Source: a virus
Virus record (IMG/VR): IMGVR_UViG_3300045043_000023
Span: 1-42,823 of that record
Strand: one strand, 5' to 3'
DNA length: 42,823 bases
How positions within the stretch are numbered: the first letter of the stretch is position 1; every line of letters begins with the position of its first letter. Below the pieces are notes generated by a model. That model saw only the letters and a program-made list of their open reading frames with translations. It had not been told where the DNA came from and did not search any database. Shown piece by piece: positions 275-39,792 of the stretch. Made by a program: the position numbers and the translations under genes.

Positions 275-703
275 ATGAGCGACGCCCTTGCCATCATCCC
301 ACCCCTCGATCCGCAGAACGCGCTGATGCAGCCGGGCATGCTCGGTGCCTATCAGGCGCAGCAGCGCAATGCGTTGGCGCAGGCGTTGCGGCTGATCGGT
401 GCCCCAGGAGGTGATCCGGAAGGCGCTACATCGCTCGATGGTTGGTTCAACGACAACGCGCCGCTGCTGACAGCGAAGCAACTCGCGGACCTGATCGAGC
501 AGGAGCAGACGCACAGACGCATTCCGCAGTCTCCGTCCGACCCACGGGCGCTGCCGTTGTCACCCGCATCGCCAGCCGACGCGTTCGTTCACCGGCCGCT
601 GATGGGCGTCAGCCCATACGACCCGAATGAGATGAAGCCGGGCGGCGCAGGGCGGCTGATCAACGAACAGCTACTAGGCCCATTGCGTGATTACAGGACA
701 TGA
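275..703 (+). CDS. Hypothetical protein upstream of portal
   Basis: 142-aa ORF with GGGAGG 13 nt upstream. Its stop overlaps the portal start (ATGA). Confidence 0.6.
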   Translation: MSDALAIIPPLDPQNALMQPGMLGAYQAQQRNALAQALRLIGAPGGDPEGATSLDGWFNDNAPLLTAKQLADLIEQEQTHRRIPQSPSDPRALPLSPASPADAFVHRPLMGVSPYDPNEMKPGGAGRLINEQLLGPLRDYRT

Positions 704-2862
704 GTGATCTAGCCCTCTATCGCCCCGCCAATCCGCAGGACGACCCAGAACGCTACGGCCGCACCATCGAGGCCGAGGCTAAGTATCCGCGCGACCTCGA
801 TGAGCTGCACGACGAACTGGTCAGGTGGTTCGAAGAGTCGGAGATGGCGCGGCAGGACGAGATCACCCTGGCGCAGCGCGACCGTGATTATGTGGATGGC
901 GCCCAGTGGACCAAGGAGGAACTGGCCGAACTGAAGAAGCGCGGGCAGCCGGCGATCGTGATCAACAAGTGCATCGAGAAAATCCAGCTACTGTGCGGCA
1001 TCGAGCGCAAGGCGCGCACTGATCCCAAGGCGTATGCCAGAACGCCTCAAGAGGAAGACCTCGCCGACGCTGCCACGCAGGCTTTGAGGTTCATCGCCGA
1101 CGACAACAATTTCAGCATGATCCGCAGCAGCGTCTATGAGAACATGCTGGTGGAGGGAGCCGGCGGGGCTGAGGTCGGCCTGGAGGACGACGGCAACGGT
1201 GGCGCCAACGTCACCATCACGCACGTTCCGTGGGACCGTGTCTGGTATGACCCGCACAGCCGATCGTTCGACTTCTCCGATGCCCGCTACAAAGGCATCG
1301 TGATCTGGGTCGACCGCGACCAGTTGGAGGAGATGTATCCAGATGCGCTGGATGTCATCGAGGACAGCTTCAGCACCGTCGATTTCCACTACAACGACCG
1401 GCCGGAAACCGCATTCTGGACCGATAACAACCGCCGCCGTGTGCGCCTTGTTCAATGCCACTGGCTAGAGCGTGGCGTCTGGTATCAGGCGACCTACACC
1501 AAGCATGGCATGCTGGCCGCACCGCAGAAGTCCAAGATGAAGGATCGGCGCGGCAAGAGTGCGTGCGGGTTGCTGCTGCAGTCGTCCTACATCAACCGCG
1601 AGAACGGCCGCTACGGCATGATCCGTATGCTGATCTCGCTGCAGGATGAGATTAACAAGCGACGCAGCAAGGCTCTGCACTTGCTGTCGGTGCGCCAGGT
1701 GATCGCCGAGCAGGGCGCGGTGCAGGACGTGGACAAGGCAAGGCGCGAGGTTGCCAAGCCGGACGGTTACGTCGAGATCATGCCCGGCCTCAAATTCGAG
1801 ATTGAGAGCGGCGCAGAACTGGCGACTGGGCAGTTCCAGTTGCTGCAGCATGCGACCGCCGAGATGCAGCTTGCCGGGCCGAACGCAGCGATGGGCGGCA
1901 CCGATCCACGCGAGCTGTCCGGTCGCGCGATCCTGGCACAGCAGGCCGGCGGGCAGGCCGCCAACGAGCCACTCGCCGATGCGCTGCGCATGTGGAGCCG
2001 GCGCGTCTATGAAATGGCGTGGATGGCCGCGCGCGAGTTCTGGTCCGGCGGCAAGTGGGTCAGGGTCACGGATGAGTTGAATGATGTCAGATACGTCGGC
2101 ATCAACCAGCCGGTCCGCGTGATCGACATGCTGGCGAAGATGGACGACGAGAAGCGCGCCATGACGGCGCAGCGCATGCAGCTCGTGCCCGGCGATCCTC
2201 GGCTCTATCAGGTCATCGAGGTCGAGAACGACATCACGTCGCTGGATGTGGATATCTCGATTGCCGAGGGCATCGATGTTCCGTCAATCGCCAATGAGCA
2301 ATTCCAGACACTCGTGCAACTCGCAGGCATGCAGCCTGGATTGATCCCACCGGAGATACTGATAGCCGCCAGCGGATTGCGTGACAAAGAGATGTTGCTG
2401 GAGAGACTGAAGGAACATCAAAAGGCGATGGCTGAAAAGCAGCAGAAGGCCGAGCAGATCGCCACTGCCGACAAGGCCGCCGACATTCAGGGCAAGCAGG
2501 CCAAGGCACAGGCCGACATGGCACTCGCGCAGGAACGCAAGATCAACAGCGTGCGCGGTGTCCACGGCATGCACGCCGAATACAGTGCGCCGCCCTATGG
2601 CCAGCCCTACACGGCGGACAACGCCGCACAGCCACAGTCACCGCCGGTTGATCCGACGCAGATGACGCCGGAAATGGCGATGGCCCACCACATGACGGAA
2701 CTCGCCAAGATGCAGGCGGAAATCCGCAACAAGGATGCGTCCACGGCACTGACGGCAGCCAAGATACCGCAGACCCATCATCAGACGCTCAACACGCTGA
2801 TCCAGGCCGATCGCCTGGCGCGCACGCCAATCCCAAGGCCCGCAGCGCCTACCGCGCGCTAA
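700..2862 (+). CDS. Portal protein
   Basis: 720 aa, sited directly before the scaffold and capsid genes. N-terminal motif QRDRDYVDGAQWTKEELAELKKRGQPAIVINK is typical of podovirus/P22-type portals. Confidence 0.85.
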   Translation: MSDLALYRPANPQDDPERYGRTIEAEAKYPRDLDELHDELVRWFEESEMARQDEITLAQRDRDYVDGAQWTKEELAELKKRGQPAIVINKCIEKIQLLCGIERKARTDPKAYARTPQEEDLADAATQALRFIADDNNFSMIRSSVYENMLVEGAGGAEVGLEDDGNGGANVTITHVPWDRVWYDPHSRSFDFSDARYKGIVIWVDRDQLEEMYPDALDVIEDSFSTVDFHYNDRPETAFWTDNNRRRVRLVQCHWLERGVWYQATYTKHGMLAAPQKSKMKDRRGKSACGLLLQSSYINRENGRYGMIRMLISLQDEINKRRSKALHLLSVRQVIAEQGAVQDVDKARREVAKPDGYVEIMPGLKFEIESGAELATGQFQLLQHATAEMQLAGPNAAMGGTDPRELSGRAILAQQAGGQAANEPLADALRMWSRRVYEMAWMAAREFWSGGKWVRVTDELNDVRYVGINQPVRVIDMLAKMDDEKRAMTAQRMQLVPGDPRLYQVIEVENDITSLDVDISIAEGIDVPSIANEQFQTLVQLAGMQPGLIPPEILIAASGLRDKEMLLERLKEHQKAMAEKQQKAEQIATADKAADIQGKQAKAQADMALAQERKINSVRGVHGMHAEYSAPPYGQPYTADNAAQPQSPPVDPTQMTPEMAMAHHMTELAKMQAEIRNKDASTALTAAKIPQTHHQTLNTLIQADRLARTPIPRPAAPTAR

Positions 2863-3752: not shown

Positions 3753-4144
3753 GTCTGTGCAGGACAAGCCAGAACTCACCGTAGACCAATTGCGTCGTGT
3801 GCTCCTGCGAATGTGCAGGATCATGAACGGGCCATCTGCACAGTGTGCAGAGCCTTGTGCCCGATGCAGCACCGCGAGCGTTCTGTTCACAGTGATCGAC
3901 CCTCCGCGCTTCCTCCGCATTGCCGGTGTCGGCACGGTGGACTTCGGAGAGCCGGACGTGCCTACCCGCCGCCGGGGGCAATCGGGCGTTTCGTCCATCA
4001 CCAGGTCGTTGAAGTGGTGATCACCGTCTCCGGGTGAGCCTGACGGGTGCCGACCGTCGCCGGGTCGTTCGTCCGGGCGTTTCGACCACAAGGACATAGG
4101 GTCGTTGAAGCAGTCCGCATCGCTCAGTGCGGAAAACCCCAACA
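3753..4144 (+). promoter_or_regulatory. Long non-coding leader upstream of the major capsid gene, carrying repeats and palindromes
   Basis: No frame has coding-like composition. TGTGCAG(G/A) occurs at 3756, 3812 and 3844. Perfect palindromes lie at 3836..3850 and 4016..4025. CGGGCGTTTCG (3983, 4074) and GGTCGTTGAAG (4004, 4100) are each duplicated. Confidence 0.4.
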
Positions 4145-5257
4145 ATGGCTGACATGAATGTAACGGCCGCCAGGCCGGGACTAACTCCAATCCAATGGAG
4201 TTCCGACTTCTGGGTAGAATATCTCAGAGAAAACCAGTTCAGCCCATACTTCGGCACAAGTATGGACGCGATGATCCAGCTTCAAACGGATCTTACGCGT
4301 AAGCCCGGCGACAGCGTCGTCTTCCCCACCGTCCGCAACCTGGTGGGCGCAGGCGTAACCGGCAACACCGTGCTCGAAGGCAATGAGGAAATCCTCAACG
4401 CCCGAAGCCTGAAAGTGGCGGTGTCTGTCATCCGCCATGCCGTGGCGGTGAGCCAGTGGGACGAGCAGAAGTCGGTCATCGATCTGCTGCAGGCCGGGCG
4501 CCAGGTGCTGAAGAACTGGGCGGCCAATAAGCTCAGAGCGGACATCATCACCTCGCTCGGTGCCATCACGGCTGACGGCGATGTGCAGCTCACCTACGCG
4601 GCAGCATCCGCAGCACAGCGCAATACGTGGCTCACCAACAACGCCGACCGCGTGCTGTTCGGCAATTCCAAGGTGAACGCGGTGTCCAACGTCTATGCCA
4701 CCGCGCTGACCACGATCGACAACACCGCCGACAAGCTCACAGCCGCACAGCTCACCCTGGCCAAGCGGCTTGCGCGCACCGCCAATCCGAAGATCCGTCC
4801 GATCCGGGTGAGCGGCGATGAGGAGTGGTACGTGGTGTTCGTGCCAAGCCTGCCGTTCCGCGACCTTATGCAAGACCCGACGATCATCAATGCCCTGCAG
4901 TATGCGTGGGACCGTGGCCGCGACAATCCGCTGTTTACAGCAGGGGATATACTTTGGAATGGCATGATTATACGTGAAATCCCCGAACTGCCTGTCGTGC
5001 CAGACGTGGGTGCAGGCGCTACGGTGGATGCAGCGGCGTCCTACCTTTGTGGCGCGCAGGCTCTCGGCATTGCCTGGGCACAGCGGACGAAGGCCATAAC
5101 GAACGAGAGGGATTATGGCTATTTTAGTGGCGTTGGCGTAATGGAAATCAGGGGCGTGGCGAAGTTGCGTTTCGGCACCGACCCTACAGTCGATCAGACA
5201 AAACCTGTAGACAACGGCGTATTTACAATCTGGTCGGCCAGTGAACCAGATGCATAA
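4145..5257 (+). CDS. Major capsid protein, N4-gp56 family type
   Basis: The motif DLTRKPGDSVVFPTVRNLVGAGVTGNTVLEGNEEILNARSLKVAVSVIRHAV matches the family signature as I recall it. Follows the scaffold gene. The ATG at 4145 is preferred over the GTG at 4127. Confidence 0.85.
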   Translation: MADMNVTAARPGLTPIQWSSDFWVEYLRENQFSPYFGTSMDAMIQLQTDLTRKPGDSVVFPTVRNLVGAGVTGNTVLEGNEEILNARSLKVAVSVIRHAVAVSQWDEQKSVIDLLQAGRQVLKNWAANKLRADIITSLGAITADGDVQLTYAAASAAQRNTWLTNNADRVLFGNSKVNAVSNVYATALTTIDNTADKLTAAQLTLAKRLARTANPKIRPIRVSGDEEWYVVFVPSLPFRDLMQDPTIINALQYAWDRGRDNPLFTAGDILWNGMIIREIPELPVVPDVGAGATVDAAASYLCGAQALGIAWAQRTKAITNERDYGYFSGVGVMEIRGVAKLRFGTDPTVDQTKPVDNGVFTIWSASEPDA

Positions 5258-26995: not shown

Positions 26996-27394
26996 TTACC
27001 TCGGTTGGGTTCTCCCGCGATGCCTGGTCGGGATTTCCGACTGCGGCGCATGGCAGGGCTGCTCGGGACTTCCTTCGATATTCGCCGCCATGCCCAGGAG
27101 TTCCAGCAGGTTCTCCTGCTGCCTCGGCGAGAGCAGGACAAACCGGCGCAGCATCGTAATCTGCCGCGTGTCTTTCACTAGAACGCCGTCCACTCCCGGC
27201 ATATCGCGTGTAAGTGCTGCCGGGTCGACCAGAGTCACCTCGGCGATCTTGAGAATGTTGGTGGTGCCAGGGTTCTTCCGGTGGCTTTCCCACTGCCCGA
27301 CGATGCCATGGCTGACGCCTACGGCTGCGGCCAACTCTCGCTGATTGAGACCAGCAGCCTGGCGAGCCTGACGAATCCTGTCGCCGATCTTCAT
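26996..27394 (-). CDS. XRE-family HTH repressor (CI-like, no S24 peptidase domain)
   Basis: MKIGDRIRQARQAAGLNQRELAAAVGVSHGIVGQWESHRKNP is a classic XRE HTH. Divergent from a Cro-like gene. Start set at 27394. Confidence 0.8.
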   Translation of the reverse strand: MKIGDRIRQARQAAGLNQRELAAAVGVSHGIVGQWESHRKNPGTTNILKIAEVTLVDPAALTRDMPGVDGVLVKDTRQITMLRRFVLLSPRQQENLLELLGMAANIEGSPEQPCHAPQSEIPTRHRGRTQPR

Positions 27395-27490
27395 AGCCGG
27401 CAGGGTGACACTAAGTCTGTCAGTCTGGGGGAAGCAATCTAGCGTCCCAAGGGGGGTTCCCCTTTCAGCTTCCCGACGGTAAGCTATGTC
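27395..27490. promoter_or_regulatory. Divergent promoter/operator region of the repressor-Cro switch
   Basis: 96-bp intergenic region containing TGACA-N7-TGTCA (27406..27422) and AAGGGG-ggtt-CCCCTT (27449..27464). Confidence 0.6.
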
Positions 27491-27691
27491 ATGCCCGACG
27501 GTATGGCCCTGCTCCGAGCGCAACGTGGCTTGTGTGCCAAGGTCGCTCACGGCCTCGGCCTCACGCGTGCGTCAGTCGTGAAATGGCGGCAGGTGCCGGC
27601 CGAACGGGTGGTCGAGATCGAACGGATATCCGGCATTCCACGAGAGAAGCTACGGCCTGACCTGTATCGCAAATGCCTGACCGCCGCCTGA
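27491..27691 (+). CDS. Cro / YdaS-like HTH regulator
   Basis: LCAKVAHGLGLTRASVVKWRQVPAERVVEIERISGIPREKLRPDLY fits the YdaS/Cro pattern. Divergent from the repressor. Confidence 0.7.
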   Translation: MPDGMALLRAQRGLCAKVAHGLGLTRASVVKWRQVPAERVVEIERISGIPREKLRPDLYRKCLTAA

Positions 27692-28306: not shown

Positions 28307-28804
28307 GTGAGCGGCAACCGCCCCCGGCAGAGCCACGAGTGGCTCGACGCATCCACGGTGCGCCTGCGTGTGCTGTGGGCCGAGGGCGTGGGCACCAAGG
28401 AGATCGGCGTCGAGTTGGGCGTCGGCAAGAACGCGGTGATCGGCAAGGCCCGCCGGCTCGGCCTGGCGCCGCGTCCTTCGCCGCTCGGGTTAGGGCGGGG
28501 CCAGCCGCTGCCGCCGCCACGTCCGCGTCCGGTGGCGCTGCCCAGCCTGTATCGCCAGTTGGAGCCGCAGCAGCGCTCGTCGCTCGCCGGGCGTCCACCG
28601 GCACCGCCAGCCACGCCACCAACCCCGCCAGAGCCACCGCCCGCGCCGCAGAGCAGCGGCGGGACGTGCATGTATCCGATATCAGATGGTAGGCCCTGGC
28701 GCTTCTGTGGCGCCCCCTGCGTGCCCAATCGTGTTTATTGTGCCGAACATGTCGCTCTTTGCTACCACCCGCCCGGCCGTCACCGGTTCGAGGCGGCGGC
28801 ATGA
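28307..28804 (+). CDS. gcrA: GcrA-like cell-cycle regulator
   Basis: N-terminus W.D..V.LR.LWAEG....EIG.ELGV.KNAVIGKA.RLGL, a Pro-rich linker, and C-terminus CMYPISDGRPWRFCGAPCVPNRVYCAEHVALCY match GcrA architecture. Confidence 0.8.
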   Translation: MSGNRPRQSHEWLDASTVRLRVLWAEGVGTKEIGVELGVGKNAVIGKARRLGLAPRPSPLGLGRGQPLPPPRPRPVALPSLYRQLEPQQRSSLAGRPPAPPATPPTPPEPPPAPQSSGGTCMYPISDGRPWRFCGAPCVPNRVYCAEHVALCYHPPGRHRFEAAA

Positions 28805-33224: not shown

Positions 33225-33466
33225 CCGCCAGTTTCGACCACCTGGTCCGCCAATGCGATCCAGACTACCGCCGCGCCGAGGCCATCGCCCTCAACATCAC
33301 CGACGACCTCGACGAGCTGCACGACGACCACCAGATCGTCATCATCTCAGCCCTCGCTCACATCCTCATCGCATTCATGCGCCAATGCCCGGCGCAATAC
33401 CGCACCGCCCTCACCGACAGCCTGCTCGCCGATCTCCGCCAGCAAATCCTCGATCCCGATGCTTGA
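33221..33466 (+). CDS. Hypothetical protein
   Basis: 81 aa with overlapping start and stop. Confidence 0.55.
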   Translation: MTASFDHLVRQCDPDYRRAEAIALNITDDLDELHDDHQIVIISALAHILIAFMRQCPAQYRTALTDSLLADLRQQILDPDA

Positions 33467-34028
33467 CGGGCGTCGTCTCAGGGCGCTAGACGAGTCCCAG
33501 CCCGATGCCTTCGAGCACCTCGGGTGCGGTAGCCGTTGGGCCGTCTGCCAAACCCACCCGCAAGCCGAACGCTGGGCGTTCCTGAACCTGGAACGCCAGG
33601 GCTACACCGCGTTCCTCCCGATGCACCTGGTCCTACGACGCGATCCGGTGCTGCGTACGCTGACCCGCCGCGTCCTCGCCCCGCTCTACGTCGGCTACCT
33701 GTTCGTCCAGCCAGGCACCCACTGGGGACCAATCCAGCACAGTCGCGGCGTCTCCAAGCTGCTCATGAACGGGGAACGCCCCCAGTTGTGCTCTCCGGGC
33801 GCTGTAGAGGCGCTGGAGCGGTCAGAGGCATCCAGACGCTCACCACCAGCGGAAAGCGCCCTATACGCCCCAGGCGAGGCTGTGAGCCTCGCGACGGGTA
33901 GTCTTAGTGGCCACCATGGCGTCATCGTCCGCACCACCGCCTCACACGCCGTCGTGGCGCTGCTGCTCATGGGCCGACTGGTCGAGGCATCCGTCCGCCT
34001 CGATGCACTCGCCAGGCCCACCGCATGA
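33459..34028 (+). CDS. NusG/RfaH-family transcription antitermination factor (NGN + KOW)
   Basis: Aligns by eye with E. coli RfaH. WAVCQTHPQAERWAFLNLERQGYTAFLPM matches WYLLYCKRGQLQRAQEHLERQAVNCLAPM. APLYVGYLFVQ matches EPLFPNYLFVE. PGEAVSLATGSLSGHHGVIV matches PGDKVIITEGAFEGFQAIF. Confidence 0.8.
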   Translation: MLDGRRLRALDESQPDAFEHLGCGSRWAVCQTHPQAERWAFLNLERQGYTAFLPMHLVLRRDPVLRTLTRRVLAPLYVGYLFVQPGTHWGPIQHSRGVSKLLMNGERPQLCSPGAVEALERSEASRRSPPAESALYAPGEAVSLATGSLSGHHGVIVRTTASHAVVALLLMGRLVEASVRLDALARPTA

Positions 34029-34641: not shown

Positions 34642-34896
34642 ATGGCGCTAGGACGCAAAACTGGAGGCCGACAGCCCGGCTCGACCAACAAAGTCAGCGG
34701 CGACCTCAAGCACATGATCCTCGGTGCCTTGGCTGGTGCCGGTGGCGAAGCCTATCTGCAACGTCAAGCTGACGAAAATCCCGGCGCGTTCCTCACCCTC
34801 ATCGGCAAAGTGCTGCCCATGCAGGTCACTGGCGGCGAAGGTGGGCCAGTACGCATCGAGGTGGTAACAGGCGTGCCGCGACAGGATGACGACTGA
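34642..34896 (+). CDS. Terminase small subunit (putative)
   Basis: 84 aa with a basic N-terminus (GRKTGGRQPGSTNK). The stop overlaps the terminase large subunit start. Confidence 0.45.
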   Translation: MALGRKTGGRQPGSTNKVSGDLKHMILGALAGAGGEAYLQRQADENPGAFLTLIGKVLPMQVTGGEGGPVRIEVVTGVPRQDDD

Positions 34897-36209
34897 TGGC
34901 AAGGCGGCCTGTCGTTATCAGCTACACACCGCGCGATCAGTTCGTGCCATATCACAAACGCAAGCAGCGCTGGGCATGCATCGTCGCTCATCGTCGCGCC
35001 GGCAAAAGCGTGGCATGCGTGATGGACCTCATCGACGCAGCATTGCGCTGCAAGAAACCAAATGCACGCTTCGGTTATATCGCGCCGACATACACGCAGG
35101 CGAAGGACGTGGTCTGGTCGTACTTGAAGGAGTTCACACACGAAATACCCGGCGCTGAACTGCGCGAGTCTGATCTGTCCGTGATATTTCCAACCGGCGC
35201 ACGCGTCAGGCTCTATGGCAGCGACAATCAGGACCGGCTGCGCGGTATCTACTTTGACGGCGTGGTGATGGATGAGTTCGCCGACATGGCGCCAGGTGTG
35301 TGGTCGCATGTCGTGCGGCCAGCGCTCACCGATCGGCAGGGTTGGGCAACATTCATCGGCACACCGAAAGGCCGCAACGGGTTCTGGGATATCTACAGCA
35401 ACGCTTGCGACGATCCCGCATGGTTCACGCTCGCATTGCGTGCATCTCAGACCGGCCTGATCGCGGAGGAGGAGCTTGAGACAGCTCGCCGCGACATGAC
35501 GCCCGAAGCCTACGCCCAAGAGTTCGAGTGCAGCTTTGACGCCGCCATTCTTGGTGCTTACTTCGCCAAGGAGATCGAGGAGGCAGAGCGCACCGGGCGC
35601 ATCGGTCAGGTGCCATACGATCCAGTGCTGCCCGTCCATACCGCCTGGGATCTTGGCATCGGCGACAGCACCGCCGTCTGGTTCTTCCAGGTGTCGCTGT
35701 CCGAGGTGCGGGTGATCGATCACTACGAGGCATCAGGCCACGGTCTGCCGCACTACGCCGCCGTCCTCGCCGCCAAGCCCTACCGCTACGGCACCGACTA
35801 CCTGCCGCACGACGCAGAGGCGCGGCAGCTCGGCACCGGACGCTCGATCTGGGAGACGCTCAACGGCCTGACCGGACGTATCCCGCGCGTGCTGGCAGCG
35901 CAGAACGTGATGGACAGCATCAATGCCGCGCGCATCACACTCGCCAGCGCATGGTTCGATGCGGACAAATGCCACCACGGGCTGGAGGCGCTGCGGGCCT
36001 ACCGCACCGACTATGACGAGCGGCGCAAAGTCTTCAACGACAAACCCAGGCACGACTGGTCGAGCCACAGTGCCGATGCGTTCCGTTACCTGTCGCTAGC
36101 CTGGCGTGAGATGCAGCCGGCCAAGCCACCACCACCGCCAGTGGATACGTGGTCCAGAGCTTGGGAACGCGCATCACAGACGGATGTTGACGCCTGGAGA
36201 GTGGCGTGA
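34896..36209 (+). CDS. terL: Terminase large subunit
   Basis: Walker A AHRRAGKS, Walker B GVVMDEF, IGTPKG, and nuclease-domain motif VHTAWDLGIGDSTAVWFFQ. Confidence 0.9.
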   Translation: MARRPVVISYTPRDQFVPYHKRKQRWACIVAHRRAGKSVACVMDLIDAALRCKKPNARFGYIAPTYTQAKDVVWSYLKEFTHEIPGAELRESDLSVIFPTGARVRLYGSDNQDRLRGIYFDGVVMDEFADMAPGVWSHVVRPALTDRQGWATFIGTPKGRNGFWDIYSNACDDPAWFTLALRASQTGLIAEEELETARRDMTPEAYAQEFECSFDAAILGAYFAKEIEEAERTGRIGQVPYDPVLPVHTAWDLGIGDSTAVWFFQVSLSEVRVIDHYEASGHGLPHYAAVLAAKPYRYGTDYLPHDAEARQLGTGRSIWETLNGLTGRIPRVLAAQNVMDSINAARITLASAWFDADKCHHGLEALRAYRTDYDERRKVFNDKPRHDWSSHSADAFRYLSLAWREMQPAKPPPPPVDTWSRAWERASQTDVDAWRVA

Positions 36210-37167: not shown

Positions 37168-37359
37168 ATGCCTGACACCGATCTGCCGGCTGGCTTTGCC
37201 TACGCCACGAGCGAGGAACTGTTCGAGGCTCTGGGTAGTCCAGACCCAGGCATGGACGCGCGGGCCGTTGAGGCGGTTGTGCGTCGGGTTAGGATGCAGA
37301 AAGGGCTGTTTGATGTGGAAACCATCCCGAGTGCAGCCGTGAGCGGTTATCGCGCGTAG
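37168..37359 (+). CDS. Hypothetical small acidic protein bracketed by R1 and R2
   Basis: 63-aa ORF with GGAGG 4 nt upstream. Its stop codon TAG lies inside R2. Confidence 0.5.
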   Translation: MPDTDLPAGFAYATSEELFEALGSPDPGMDARAVEAVVRRVRMQKGLFDVETIPSAAVSGYRA

Positions 37360-37366: not shown

Positions 37367-37560
37367 TACCGGCAACTCGGCCTAGAATGCGCCCGCTAGA
37401 CGACTGCCGTCTGAACCGGCCCTAACCGTTTCGGATATCGGCCCCCTCGGACGTGCAGAGGTGAAATGCACGGGTCGCTTTAGGCGCGGCGGAGTAGCGC
37501 TCCTGCAAACAGGAAACGACGGGCGAGTCCTGAAGCACCAAATGCCCGACCAGTGCGTTG

Positions 37561-37577
37561 TCGCGCGTAGTGGAATT
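37561..37577 (+). repeat. Direct repeat R3
   Basis: 211 bp from R2. A degenerate copy, GGTTATCGGCGCGAAATGG, follows at about 37627..37645. Confidence 0.9.
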
Positions 37578-37689
37578 TACCGCAGATCGCACCGTCTGCC
37601 GCACCCTATGGCACAAGCCGAGCCTCGGTTATCGGCGCGAAATGGGCAGCAACGCAGCCAGCATCGCAGGCCAAACCAGTTGCTCCACC

Positions 37690-37983
37690 TCACGGCGCGT
37701 CTCCCTGTGTGTGCGGTTCGCGGGGCGTGGTCCAGTCGTGGCATCGAGCGCAGTAGCCATACTCAACGTCGTTCATGTTGTAGCTGACCGCGTTGCACCG
37801 GGGGCATGTGATCGAGGGCAGCAGCCATCCGCTCCCGTGACAAACCGGACAGTCATTGCCGAACGTGAAGCACGGCGCCGGTTCAGCGTAACCAGTCCCG
37901 CGACATTCGCGGCACCGCATCTTGCGGAATGGGTTCACCCGCTTCGTCTCCCTGTGTGCGGTGTATCTGAATTTATGCCGCAC
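37690..37983 (-). CDS. DnaJ-type CxxCxGxG zinc-finger protein
   Basis: CRECRGTG and CPVCHGSG, plus CPRC..CARC. 97 aa from the GTG at 37983; an alternative ATG lies at 37920. Confidence 0.6.
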   Translation of the reverse strand: MRHKFRYTAHRETKRVNPFRKMRCRECRGTGYAEPAPCFTFGNDCPVCHGSGWLLPSITCPRCNAVSYNMNDVEYGYCARCHDWTTPREPHTQGDAP

Positions 37984-38206
37984 TCGATTGCACCGCCGCT
38001 ATTCCAGATTCGGTCAACCTGACCCCTGGCACCGTGTCGCGGAGCAGATCGATCCAGCAGTCGGTCACGAGCGCCTGTCGCATGAGTTTCCGCAACACGG
38101 CCTCATGCGATGGGTCGCCGCCAGTAATGTAGACGCGCAGAGCGCCACGCGGATCGTCCCGCTGGTGCGACCAAATGCGCTGCATCATAGCCTGTGCCTT
38201 GGTCAT
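37973..38206 (-). CDS. Hypothetical protein
   Basis: 77 aa with strong AGAAGGAGG 7 nt upstream. ATGA overlap with the upstream gene. Confidence 0.65.
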   Translation of the reverse strand: MTKAQAMMQRIWSHQRDDPRGALRVYITGGDPSHEAVLRKLMRQALVTDCWIDLLRDTVPGVRLTESGIAAVQSSAA

Positions 38207-38397
38207 CGGTGGTCCTCCTTCTGTAGCTTGCGTTGCAGCGCCACCAGCTTCCGTGGCGGCGGGGCGTCGGGGCGCAGGGCCAGCACGAACCGCACCGCCT
38301 CGGCCGCCAGTGCAGCGCGCTCGGCCTGCCGCTCACGCCAGCGGTTCTGGCGCTCCAGGGTGGTCATCGGCCGGGTGCCGAGAAGGCGGGCTGGCAT
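38203..38397 (-). CDS. Hypothetical basic helical protein
   Basis: 64 aa. The ATG shares a base with the upstream stop. An alternative start lies at 38367. Confidence 0.5.
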   Translation of the reverse strand: MPARLLGTRPMTTLERQNRWRERQAERAALAAEAVRFVLALRPDAPPPRKLVALQRKLQKEDHR

Positions 38398-38546
38398 CAG
38401 CGCGACGCGAAGCCAATGAGCGCGGCGAGTGCCTTGTCTCTGCCTGTGGCGCTTATGCCGCGCCAGTTCAGACGAAGGTCGAGTGCTAGTTGCCGGTACG
38501 CATACTCGGCGCCGAATGTCATCAGGTTGGACAGGTAGTCGTTCAT
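38397..38546 (-). CDS. Hypothetical small protein (49 aa)
   Basis: MNDYLSNLMTFGAEYAYRQLALDLRLNWRG..., with AAGGAAcacaccgATG as RBS context. This is the 3' part of the spurious 168-aa track ORF. Confidence 0.5.
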   Translation of the reverse strand: MNDYLSNLMTFGAEYAYRQLALDLRLNWRGISATGRDKALAALIGFASR

Positions 38547-38581
38547 CGGTGTGTTCCTTGTGTGTGGGGTTAAGCGGCGGC

Positions 38582-38848
38582 TTATGCCGCCACCGCCATG
38601 CAGGTGAATGAGCCAGCGCCGTGGTTCTTGCCGCCGCAGGAGCACTCGCAGAGGAAGCCGGTGGCGTTCATGCAGCGAGCGTCGCACTTGTGCTGTGAAG
38701 GGTTCCGCTTCCGCTCGATCTTGCGCTCTACCGTCACCCGAAAGCCGGCGGCGTTCATGCCGGTGAAGTGTTTCGCGGTATTGTAGGTGCCATCGTGCCA
38801 GACGTTGGTGAGCTGCTCGGTGCCGGTGAAGTAGCGGAAGGTGGCCAT
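38582..38848 (-). CDS. Cys-rich small protein (88 aa)
   Basis: Start at MATFRYF, with GAGGAcacaccgATG context matching the next gene. The C-terminus carries HKCDARCMNATGFLCECSCGGKNHG. Confidence 0.6.
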   Translation of the reverse strand: MATFRYFTGTEQLTNVWHDGTYNTAKHFTGMNAAGFRVTVERKIERKRNPSQHKCDARCMNATGFLCECSCGGKNHGAGSFTCMAVAA

Positions 38849-39105
38849 CGGTGTGTCCTCGGTTTCGATGACCCCTTGTAGCGTTACGCGACGCATCGTG
38901 CAAGCGTTATTTAACGGATGAGCGGATTATTTGCGCGGTTGCATCGCCCGTTCCGAGAGCCTACCGCCGGTTAATCCAGGGTATCGGAACGGGTAAAATC
39001 CAGCACGCCGCGCGGTTATCTCTGCGGCACAGGCACAACGCCGCATTCGCTGCCAGCTATGCAGGCTGGCGCTGACAATTCCCCACCACCAGAGGACATC
39101 CCGCC

Positions 39106-39792
39106 ATGCGCGCTTTGCTGCTCGCGACCACGCTCGTCGCCCTCCCCGCGTTCGCGCACGCCGCCACCATCATCACCTACGGCCAGACCAGCGGCAGCAA
39201 CACCGTGACCGGCACCGCCAATGCTACGGGCACGCATTTCAGCGGCACCGACATCGCGGTGACCATCACTCAGATCGACGATGCCGGCACCGCCGTGCCG
39301 ACCACGGCATACCTGGATCTTGCGGCCGACAGCACCTCGGGCGCCACCGCACCGCCTGGCCTCGCCATCATCCAGCATTTCCGTGGTGCGTTCTCGATCA
39401 ATGCCGCAGCCGATAACAGCGGCACGAACTACCTGTCCGGCGCGTTCTTCGATGGCACGTTCGGGCTGCGCGGCGGCTCCGGCCTCGTGCTCACGTCGGA
39501 CGGTGTGTTCACCAGCGATGTCATCGACAACCTGGCGCCGCCGCGCAACTTCAGCATGACGTTCACCAATGTCACGCCACCGGTCAGCACCGTGGGCACG
39601 CAGGCGGCCAACAGCGCGGACTGTGCGCCGTTCTTCACCGTCGGCTGCAATGACACCGGCGCTACGTTCGGCAGCTTCACCGGCAGCGTCAGTGGCAACG
39701 CCAGTGCGGCCATCCCAGAGCCGGCCACGCTCGGTATTCTCGGCCTCGGCCTGCTCGGCATCGCCGCCGTGCGCCGCCGTCAGGGCGCGTAG
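39106..39792 (+). CDS. Secreted PEP-CTERM sorting-domain protein
   Basis: Signal peptide MRALLLATTLVALPAFAHA. C-terminus IPEPATLGILGLGLLGIAAVRRRQGA shows the PEP motif, a TM helix and an Arg cluster. Thr/Gly/Ser-rich body. Confidence 0.85.
   Translation: MRALLLATTLVALPAFAHAATIITYGQTSGSNTVTGTANATGTHFSGTDIAVTITQIDDAGTAVPTTAYLDLAADSTSGATAPPGLAIIQHFRGAFSINAAADNSGTNYLSGAFFDGTFGLRGGSGLVLTSDGVFTSDVIDNLAPPRNFSMTFTNVTPPVSTVGTQAANSADCAPFFTVGCNDTGATFGSFTGSVSGNASAAIPEPATLGILGLGLLGIAAVRRRQGA

Follow-up and report, generated by a model that had tools for sequence, protein, structure and literature searches.

The DNA analysed here (the window) is the complete 42,823 bp genome of a phage from IMG/VR, with a 24-bp end overlap and a GC content of 63%. 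A DNA search found no match between this sequence and named phages, and tblastn against named phages returned just weak motif-level matches to one of the small proteins described below (g1), plus the zinc ribbon of another (g5). The main landmarks of the genome are as follows.

700-2862, plus strand: portal
4127-5257, plus strand: major capsid
up to approximately 23.7 kb, plus strand: tail genes
26996-27550, minus strand: CI-like repressor of the RecT block
28307-28804, plus strand: GcrA-like gene
29-33 kb, plus strand: replication genes
33459-34028, plus strand: RfaH-like antiterminator
34642-34896, plus strand: terS
34896-36209, plus strand: terL

The GcrA-like gene and the bacterial matches of the g1 family point to an alphaproteobacterial host. 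Between terL and portal lies an island of approximately 6 kb, in which an operon of five small phage genes occupies positions 37690-38848 of the minus strand. The flanking genes, 37168-37359 and 39106-39792, are both on the plus strand, and the operon is thus antiparallel to its surroundings, as an earlier note on this DNA had observed. No Rfam family matched across 36.9-39.3 kb. The genes of the operon, and a doubtful sixth frame behind it, are listed in the order of transcription.

38582-38848, minus strand: g1, 88 aa, leader gene of the array, with a small N-terminal beta domain and the motif HxCDxRC..A.G..CECxCGGKNHG
38397-38546, minus strand: g2, 49 aa, predicted helical, an orphan (GC3 0.74 against GC2 0.48)
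38203-38397, minus strand: g3, 64 aa, basic, Arg/Ala-rich and helical, the second recurrent gene of the array (GC3 0.85)
37973-38206, minus strand: g4, 77 aa, a minimal winged helix-turn-helix by predicted structure, near-orphan
37690-37938, minus strand: g5, 82 aa from the GTG at 37938, with an N-terminal paired CxxCxGxG zinc knuckle and a C-terminal CPRC..CARCH zinc ribbon
37577-37693, minus strand: doubtful g6, 38 aa with 7 Cys, overlapping the g5 stop through GTGA

The earlier note had described five open reading frames of 88, 49, 64, 77 and 97 aa with overlapping stops and starts. All five frames are present; the last, however, is probably 82 aa long, and the overlaps hold for g2/g3 (TGATG) and g3/g4 (ATGA), whereas g1 and g2 are 35 nt apart and g4 and g5 overlap only if g5 starts at the GTG at 37983. 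The other details that it had read from the letters stand: the ribosome-site context GGA(A)CAC(C)ACCGATG is common to g1, g2 and g4, the motif CDARC..CECSCGGKNHG is present in g1, and g5 carries CRECRGTG and CPVCHGSG followed by CPRC and CARC.

Genuine genes of a genome with 63% GC show a GC content at third codon positions (GC3) well over that at second positions (GC2). The GC3 values of g1 to g5 are 0.87, 0.74, 0.85, 0.72 and 0.75, with GC2 values between 0.48 and 0.59, so that GC3 exceeds GC2 in each of the five, as it does for portal, capsid and terL; the codon-position composition supports all five as coding. Comparison with homologues adds to this for two of the genes. The dN/dS ratio of g1 against four relatives is 0.19-0.36, indicative of purifying selection, and the coding status of g1 is firmly supported in this way; that of g3 is supported weakly, since its dN/dS of 0.5-0.84 makes it a weakly constrained gene. 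Copies of g3 in four related loci (L040-L043) are 72-86% identical and keep the frame in all four. The basis for g2 and g4 as genes is composition together with one or two relatives: no relative of g2 was found in IMG/VR and no family match in Pfam, PHROGs, NCBIfam or PADLOC, while g4 has one relative at 82% among 5.8 billion proteins and one at 33% in metagenomes. The frame g6 is doubtful because it is without coding bias (GC3 0.67, below GC2 0.69); it has no family match in PADLOC or NCBIfam and is possibly a remnant behind an intact junction.

These figures bear on the reading that g2, g3 and g6 are not genes and that translation is confined to g1 and perhaps g5. The near-orphan status of g2 and g4, the upper dN/dS value of g3 and the composition of g6 would all be expected under it, but it has to contend with the codon-position bias of g1 to g5 in the frames given, with a ribosome site or a coupled start at every gene, with the g3 frame kept in four relatives and with the confident predicted fold of g4; we consider it very unlikely.

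The leader gene g1 belongs to a family that comprises 1,637 clusters at E <=1e-3 in a profile search of 1.84 billion representatives, and among the best 150 of these clusters nearly all members are stand-alone proteins of 72-150 aa. Thirteen columns are invariant in the family (H53, C55, C59, A62, C67, E68, C69, C71, G73, K74, N75, H76 and G77), and the ligand-type residues among them follow the pattern H-C-C-C-C-C-H. The motif is also found with other N- or C-terminal extensions, and in rare fusions it is joined to a CxxCxGxG pair and DUF6011 in a 404-aa protein or to a phage pyrophosphatase. Members occur in prophages of Alpha- and Betaproteobacteria and on 15 plasmids; in two plasmids examined the homologue lies between repA and parA, and in pQZPH41-KPC it is the first of several small unnamed genes in a row, an orphan cytosine methyltransferase among them. 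No Pfam model matches g1, and a literature search on its motif returned no papers. The C-terminal half of the protein (residues 30-78) matches phrog_6842 (E 7.1e-8), a family whose function is not described, so that membership explains nothing. AlphaFold models a confident small beta domain over residues 1-46 and a Cys-rich tail of low confidence. For neither half did structure comparison (Foldseek with PDB and BFVD; VIA-align with 48,161 chains) give a significant neighbour; the best match, to SH3/Tudor/KOW-like barrels with a Z-score of 2.6, was not above noise. We infer that g1 is a metal-binding mini-protein of a large uncharacterised family on mobile elements, and the invariant ligand pattern points to binding of a cellular partner or cofactor that is itself conserved. 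The notion that g1 represents an unusual metal-binding class was set aside as speculation.

The protein encoded by g5 most likely starts at the GTG at 37938, giving 82 aa, and not at the GTG at 37983, which would give 97 aa, because a GGGAGA ribosome site lies 8 nt before the former codon and an 82-aa database protein (P0067) is identical to g5 from that codon. Four other proteins with unrelated tails (P0068-P0071) have its knuckle in invariant form (C-E-C-R-G-T-G ... C-P-V-C-x-G-x-G-W-L), and two of them (P0068 and P0069) carry a precomputed match to the Anti-TRAP family PF15777; the ribbon of g5 is identical at 24 of 30 positions to the C-terminus of gp82 of Microbacterium phage Megan. Sequence comparison thus shows g5 to be chimeric, a DnaJ/Anti-TRAP-like knuckle being joined to a zinc ribbon that an actinophage also has. 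The N-terminal 35 aa fit the paired-CxxC pattern of Anti-TRAP and the second zinc-ribbon module follows; the structure model has a mean pLDDT of 54. Scores against the candidate families all fall under the respective cut-offs: 25.8 bits (E 1.3e-5) against PF00684 (DnaJ_CXXCXGXG; gathering cut-off 32.7), 21.7 bits against PF15777 (cut-off 32) and 20.4 bits against NF058604 (Anti-TRAP/RtpA; NCBIfam cut-off 65). A weak resemblance to the UvrA zinc module, of about the same strength as that to DnaJ and Anti-TRAP, was also seen.

The cysteine-rich domain of DnaJ has four CxxCxGxG repeats that form two zinc centres within a J-domain protein, while Anti-TRAP (RtpA) of Bacillus is a free-standing mini-protein of approximately 50-60 aa with paired CxxCxGxG motifs and one zinc site that can act purely by binding another protein. 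The paired motifs of g5 are of this zinc-knuckle type; g5 differs from both in its unrelated C-terminal zinc ribbon and in scoring below both cut-offs. An assignment of g5 as a DnaJ cysteine-rich domain was rejected, given two motifs where DnaJ has four, no J domain and a score below the Pfam cut-off, and the earlier proposal of a DnaJ-finger protein that interferes with a host chaperone finds no support in these comparisons. We consider it most likely that g5 is a two-module zinc protein acting by binding another macromolecule.

The Atlas model of g4 has a pTM of 0.74 and aligns over residues 1-77 with the winged helices of PadR, MarR, HxlR and HTH_45 (TM 0.73-0.82). From this predicted structure g4 probably binds DNA. 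The same perhaps holds for g3, and the two may regulate the operon. Scans of all products against Pfam, PHROGs, NCBIfam and PADLOC gave only sub-threshold zinc-finger matches for g5 and the PHROG of undescribed function for g1. The products of g1 to g5 thus match no known defence, anti-defence, takeover or enzyme family in these four libraries, none of which is an anti-defence profile library, and the earlier statement that the products lack an enzymatic domain agrees with this outcome. Profile and single-sequence searches of g1, g3 and g5 against solved structures returned nothing meaningful.

Two features lie upstream of g1.

38875-38903, minus strand: candidate sigma-70-type promoter of the operon, with -35 TTGCAC (38903-38898), a 17-nt spacer and -10 TACAAG (38880-38875)
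38947-38993, no strand assigned: 16-nt inverted repeat, 88% complementary, with a loop of 15 nt, in the intergenic region between the diverging genes, upstream of the promoter

The promoter of the window matches the consensus at 3/6 and 4/6 positions. A consensus promoter scan did not flag this copy, and it is thus a weak promoter identified by its position, through an alignment of the regions upstream of g1 from ten relatives. In four of these (L003, L005, L006 and L011) TTGACA with a 17-nt spacer stands at the same place, approximately 30 nt before the ATG, and a fifth (L012) has TTGACG at the -35 position; the -10 element is TATATG in L005, L006 and L011, where TTGACA-17-TATATG has its -35 at consensus. 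The sequence AATAACGCTTGC is found at the same position in the window, L004 and L010. These alignments indicate a candidate sigma-70-type promoter belonging to the operon itself, at a position conserved across relatives. Its spacer shows weak dyad symmetry in the window, and the spacers of the relatives carry small palindromes that differ from one relative to the next, as variable repressors would produce, although this is only suggestive.

Gene content was compared with 37 g1 relatives in viral contigs. Nearly all of these 37 related viral loci carry g1 and four carry g3, while g2, g4 and g5 are in none of them, the five fully read relatives included. Searching the 37 loci with the island proteins by tblastn gave matches to g3 in two more loci and no match to g2, g4 or g5; dedicated scans of IMG/VR gave four relatives for g3 and none for g2 or g4. 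The five fully read related genomes, which had themselves been located by means of g1, have structural genes that are 50-80% identical to those of the window and carry g1, and lack g2, g4 and g5. The genes downstream of g1 in relatives are instead other small genes, namely Xre-like, Arc/CopG-like ribbon-helix-helix, zinc-ribbon and unknown ones, and the arrays vary in size, with nine genes in L042 and three each in L041 and G002 (g1, a ribbon-helix-helix gene and one more). A candidate partner of g1 in relatives, the minus-strand frame at 34648-34902, was discarded, as it is antisense to terS (34642-34896). This comparison of synteny upholds the description in the earlier note of small non-enzymatic genes in a variable accessory block between terminase and portal, as the content of the block differs among related phages.

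The breakpoints in gene content are marked by short repeated elements.

38547-38581, minus strand: junction 1, consisting of the g1 stop, a spacer, the ribosome site GGAA and the g2 start
37945-37958, minus strand: first copy of the junction repeat CACACAGGGAGACG, with the g5 ribosome site
37698-37711, minus strand: second copy of the junction repeat, part of an approximately 45-nt stop/ribosome-site/GTG element
37557-37582, plus strand: repeat half-site closing the array on its 3' side; the window has three copies, of which this is the third

Junction 1 is of the sequence type GGAACACACCGATG, which joins g1 to g2 in the window and g1 or its replacement to other genes elsewhere; in L040 it follows a first gene other than g1, and in L042 it leads to a second gene other than g2. 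Two exact copies of the 14-mer CACACAGGGAGACG are present in the window, and both belong to this operon, one before g5 and one before the doubtful g6 (0.45 matches expected from shuffles at <=2 mismatches). Together with its flanks it makes up the approximately 45-nt element, which includes one gene's stop codon, GGGAGA and the GTG with which the next gene begins. The genes behind this element differ between the window and L040-L043; the shared element accounts for the common C-terminal tail HTQGDAP on otherwise unrelated proteins. The array ends in the window at the 16-mer half-site TCGCGCGTAGTGGAAT (37561-37576), which is also found in the four closest relatives; there it follows the last cassette on the 3' side by no more than approximately 130 nt (L040-L042) or lies downstream of the copy of g3 (L043). 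Breakpoints in gene content among the window and L040-L043 coincide with the junction repeats, the same junction being followed by different genes. Because junctions and half-site are shared before and after different genes, cassettes appear to have been exchanged within a fixed frame. A terminator scan found no terminator-like sites, and at the 3' end of the array no stem-loop stands out, its predicted folding being no stronger than that of shuffled sequence.

The exchange extends to the leader position. In L040, g1 is swapped for an unrelated 63-aa frame that stands behind the same leader and promoter and before the same junction. This matters for the reading that makes g1 a core regulator in the programme of the phage itself, such as of an early-to-late switch, with the downstream genes as passengers. 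The purifying selection on g1 is compatible with such a role, as is its presence in all five complete relatives, though those were found through g1; in G001 to G004 the array is moreover found between the RfaH-like gene and the late genes, at most approximately 0.7 kb from the former and not on the same strand as it. This reading is weakened by the replacement in L040, where promoter and junctions are kept, and by the variable position of the array, which follows terL in the window, L041 and L042 and lies upstream of terS in G003; the occurrence of the family on plasmids and beside parA/rep genes, in contexts without late genes, also counts against it, and we judge it quite improbable. The earlier note had named, as an outcome that would go against its accessory interpretation, homologues that are conserved core genes with housekeeping roles: g1 is as recurrent as that among the g1-selected relatives, but no housekeeping role of it is known, and L040 has another gene in its place.

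The operon could also be a secondary immunity or antirepressor module, in which small regulators control a small antirepressor that inactivates a CI-like repressor and so sets induction or superinfection behaviour. The immI region of P22 (mnt, arc, ant) groups small regulators under a promoter of its own amid late genes, and the present operon resembles it as an own-promoter unit lying antiparallel among late genes and in the ribbon-helix-helix genes of the equivalent arrays in relatives, where Arc/CopG-like and Xre-like genes directly follow g1. The phage carries a CI-like helix-turn-helix repressor (26996-27550; 184 aa) in which no S24 peptidase domain is recognisable, and one related genome is a provirus. 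The window nevertheless holds no antirepressor homologue (Ant and other antirepressor families; Pfam, PHROGs) and no ribbon-helix-helix gene, and its content is far more variable than that of immI. The alphaproteobacterial LexA box GTTC-N7-GTTC occurs nowhere in the window, for which reason a LexA-controlled antirepressor was rejected, and the g1 motif is invariant over 1,637 clusters and also found on plasmids, in contrast to fast-evolving phage repressors. With the missing LexA box and the plasmid members weakening it, an antirepressor module is in our view an unlikely explanation.

Taken together, these observations lead us to propose that the locus is an accessory operon in which cassettes for small binding proteins, under a promoter of their own, are exchanged within a fixed frame, and that its products would act on host or competitor functions; we hold this with about even confidence. 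Host RNA polymerase would be expected to recognise the sigma-70-type promoter and transcribe a short array of translationally coupled genes for small binding proteins. As the array is antiparallel to the flanking genes, terminase and portal included, it would be expressed apart from the late genes, early in infection or from the prophage. The fixed frame would consist of the promoter and leader, the repeated inter-cistronic junctions (stop, ribosome site and start) and the terminal repeat half-site, with recombination at common junctions swapping genes between phages and the putative metal-binding mini-protein g1 as the usual leader gene. The products would then serve takeover, anti-defence or exclusion. 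An anti-defence or host-takeover role of the operon, as the earlier note had suggested, is plausible and would fit the architecture and the spread of the g1 family across mobile elements.

The own promoter, the orientation against the late genes and the presence of the g1 family in prophages and plasmids would suit a lysogenic-conversion or exclusion moron, whose products would shield the lysogen from other phages. The proteins, however, are far smaller than typical defence proteins, PADLOC gave no credible match, and no membrane or enzymatic features were found in the products; there is, we think, little likelihood that the operon is of this kind.

Among described systems, the exchange of cassettes in the proposed accessory operon has its closest parallel in the PeSL cassettes of the hyperplastic regions of T4-type phages, in which an early promoter is combined with terminator stem-loops and recombination between these elements shuffles non-essential small genes (PMC2839356). 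In both cases small genes in a plastic region would be shuffled at short repeated regulatory sequences, but here the repeated sequences are the stop/ribosome-site/start junctions between cistrons of a single operon, together with a separate terminal half-site. A unit of the PeSL type, with promoter and terminator, was accordingly rejected for the junction repeats, which carry a ribosome site and a start only and are accompanied by no terminator-like sites.

The loci of the acr-aca type, by comparison, combine a strong promoter with a short series of small genes that turn over fast and encode no enzymatic domains, and have a small DNA-binding protein in the operon. The present arrays are similar in that one recurrent anchor gene marks otherwise variable loci and a small predicted DNA-binding protein lies in the operon. 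Of possible operator signs, the promoter spacer shows only weak dyad symmetry in the window and palindromes in relatives. They differ in that the anchor is g1, predicted to bind metal and usually first, whereas the acr-aca anchor is a helix-turn-helix gene at the end; in that the winged-helix gene g4 is itself an orphan and not conserved; and in that no product matches a known inhibitor.

As a phage feature the locus is of an ordinary kind. Small accessory genes have yielded most of the counter-defence and takeover functions found in phages, and are hard to detect by homology; the leader gene, promoter position, junctions and terminal half-site described here provide anchors for collecting cassettes from metagenomes. 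The g1 family, very large and invariant and putatively metal-binding, would be a rewarding subject for one biochemical study. A further reading, less likely than not, is that this family constitutes an unrecognised metal-cluster class, [H/C]xCx3Cx7CxCxCGGKNHG, of approximately 1,600 clusters with no Pfam model, which leads exchangeable arrays on phages, prophages and plasmids of many phyla and acts on a conserved host function at the entry of the element. If this were true, the arrays would represent a general junction-mediated toolbox of counter-defence and takeover genes, which could be mined through g1, the junctions and the half-site.

The small-gene array of the window is a minus-strand operon. 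In the viral locus L040, a close relative, the array promoter, the leader and the first junction are all retained, and g1, the 88-aa Cys-rich leader gene of the array, is swapped for an unrelated 63-aa ORF as first gene. The 3' boundary of the array is a repeat half-site, conserved in the four closest relatives (L040-L043). Upstream, beyond the array promoter, lies an inverted repeat, a possible operator or barrier element. The positions are as follows.

L040, 983-1249 and flanks, plus strand: region with the 63-aa ORF in place of g1
Window 37557-37582: repeat half-site (L040, 2295-2310; L041, 592-607; L042, 1855-1870; L043, 865-880)
Window 38947-38993: inverted repeat of 16 nt with a 15-nt loop, between the array promoter and the divergent PEP-CTERM gene

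Three further features lie elsewhere in the window.

Window 34642-34896, plus strand: ORF of 84 aa that bears a GGRQPGSTNK-type motif at its N-terminus and is coupled to terL by an ATGA overlap
Window 26996-27550, minus strand: CI-like HTH repressor without a detectable S24 peptidase domain
Window 28307-28804, plus strand: GcrA-like cell-cycle regulator gene

The 84-aa ORF looks like a small terminase; an antisense ORF of the same length (34648-34902) was rejected as an artefact, and is the source of misleading tblastn matches in relatives. No integrase was met among the proteins scanned, but one related genome, G005, is classified as a provirus.

Fusions of the g1 domain are rare. The 404-aa protein P0149 combines it in a single chain with a DnaJ/Anti-TRAP-like CxxCxGxG pair and DUF6011, and in the 267-aa protein P0188 it follows a phage-type inorganic pyrophosphatase (PF18823). 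A g1 homologue is also carried by plasmid pQZPH41-KPC.

L079, 5462-10736: region of pQZPH41-KPC (replicon cluster 1289) that holds the g1 homologue

Here the homologue is flanked by repA and parA, and it precedes numerous small genes without names, together with an orphan DNA cytosine methyltransferase.

The C-terminal zinc ribbon of g5, the fifth gene of the array, is shared with Microbacterium phage Megan.

L039, 2321-2593: Megan gp82, with a C-terminal zinc ribbon

The ribbon (ITCPRC..SYN.NDV..GYC.RCHDWTTP) is nearly identical between this actinobacterial phage and the proteobacterial phage of the window. It is a module common to phages of different host phyla.
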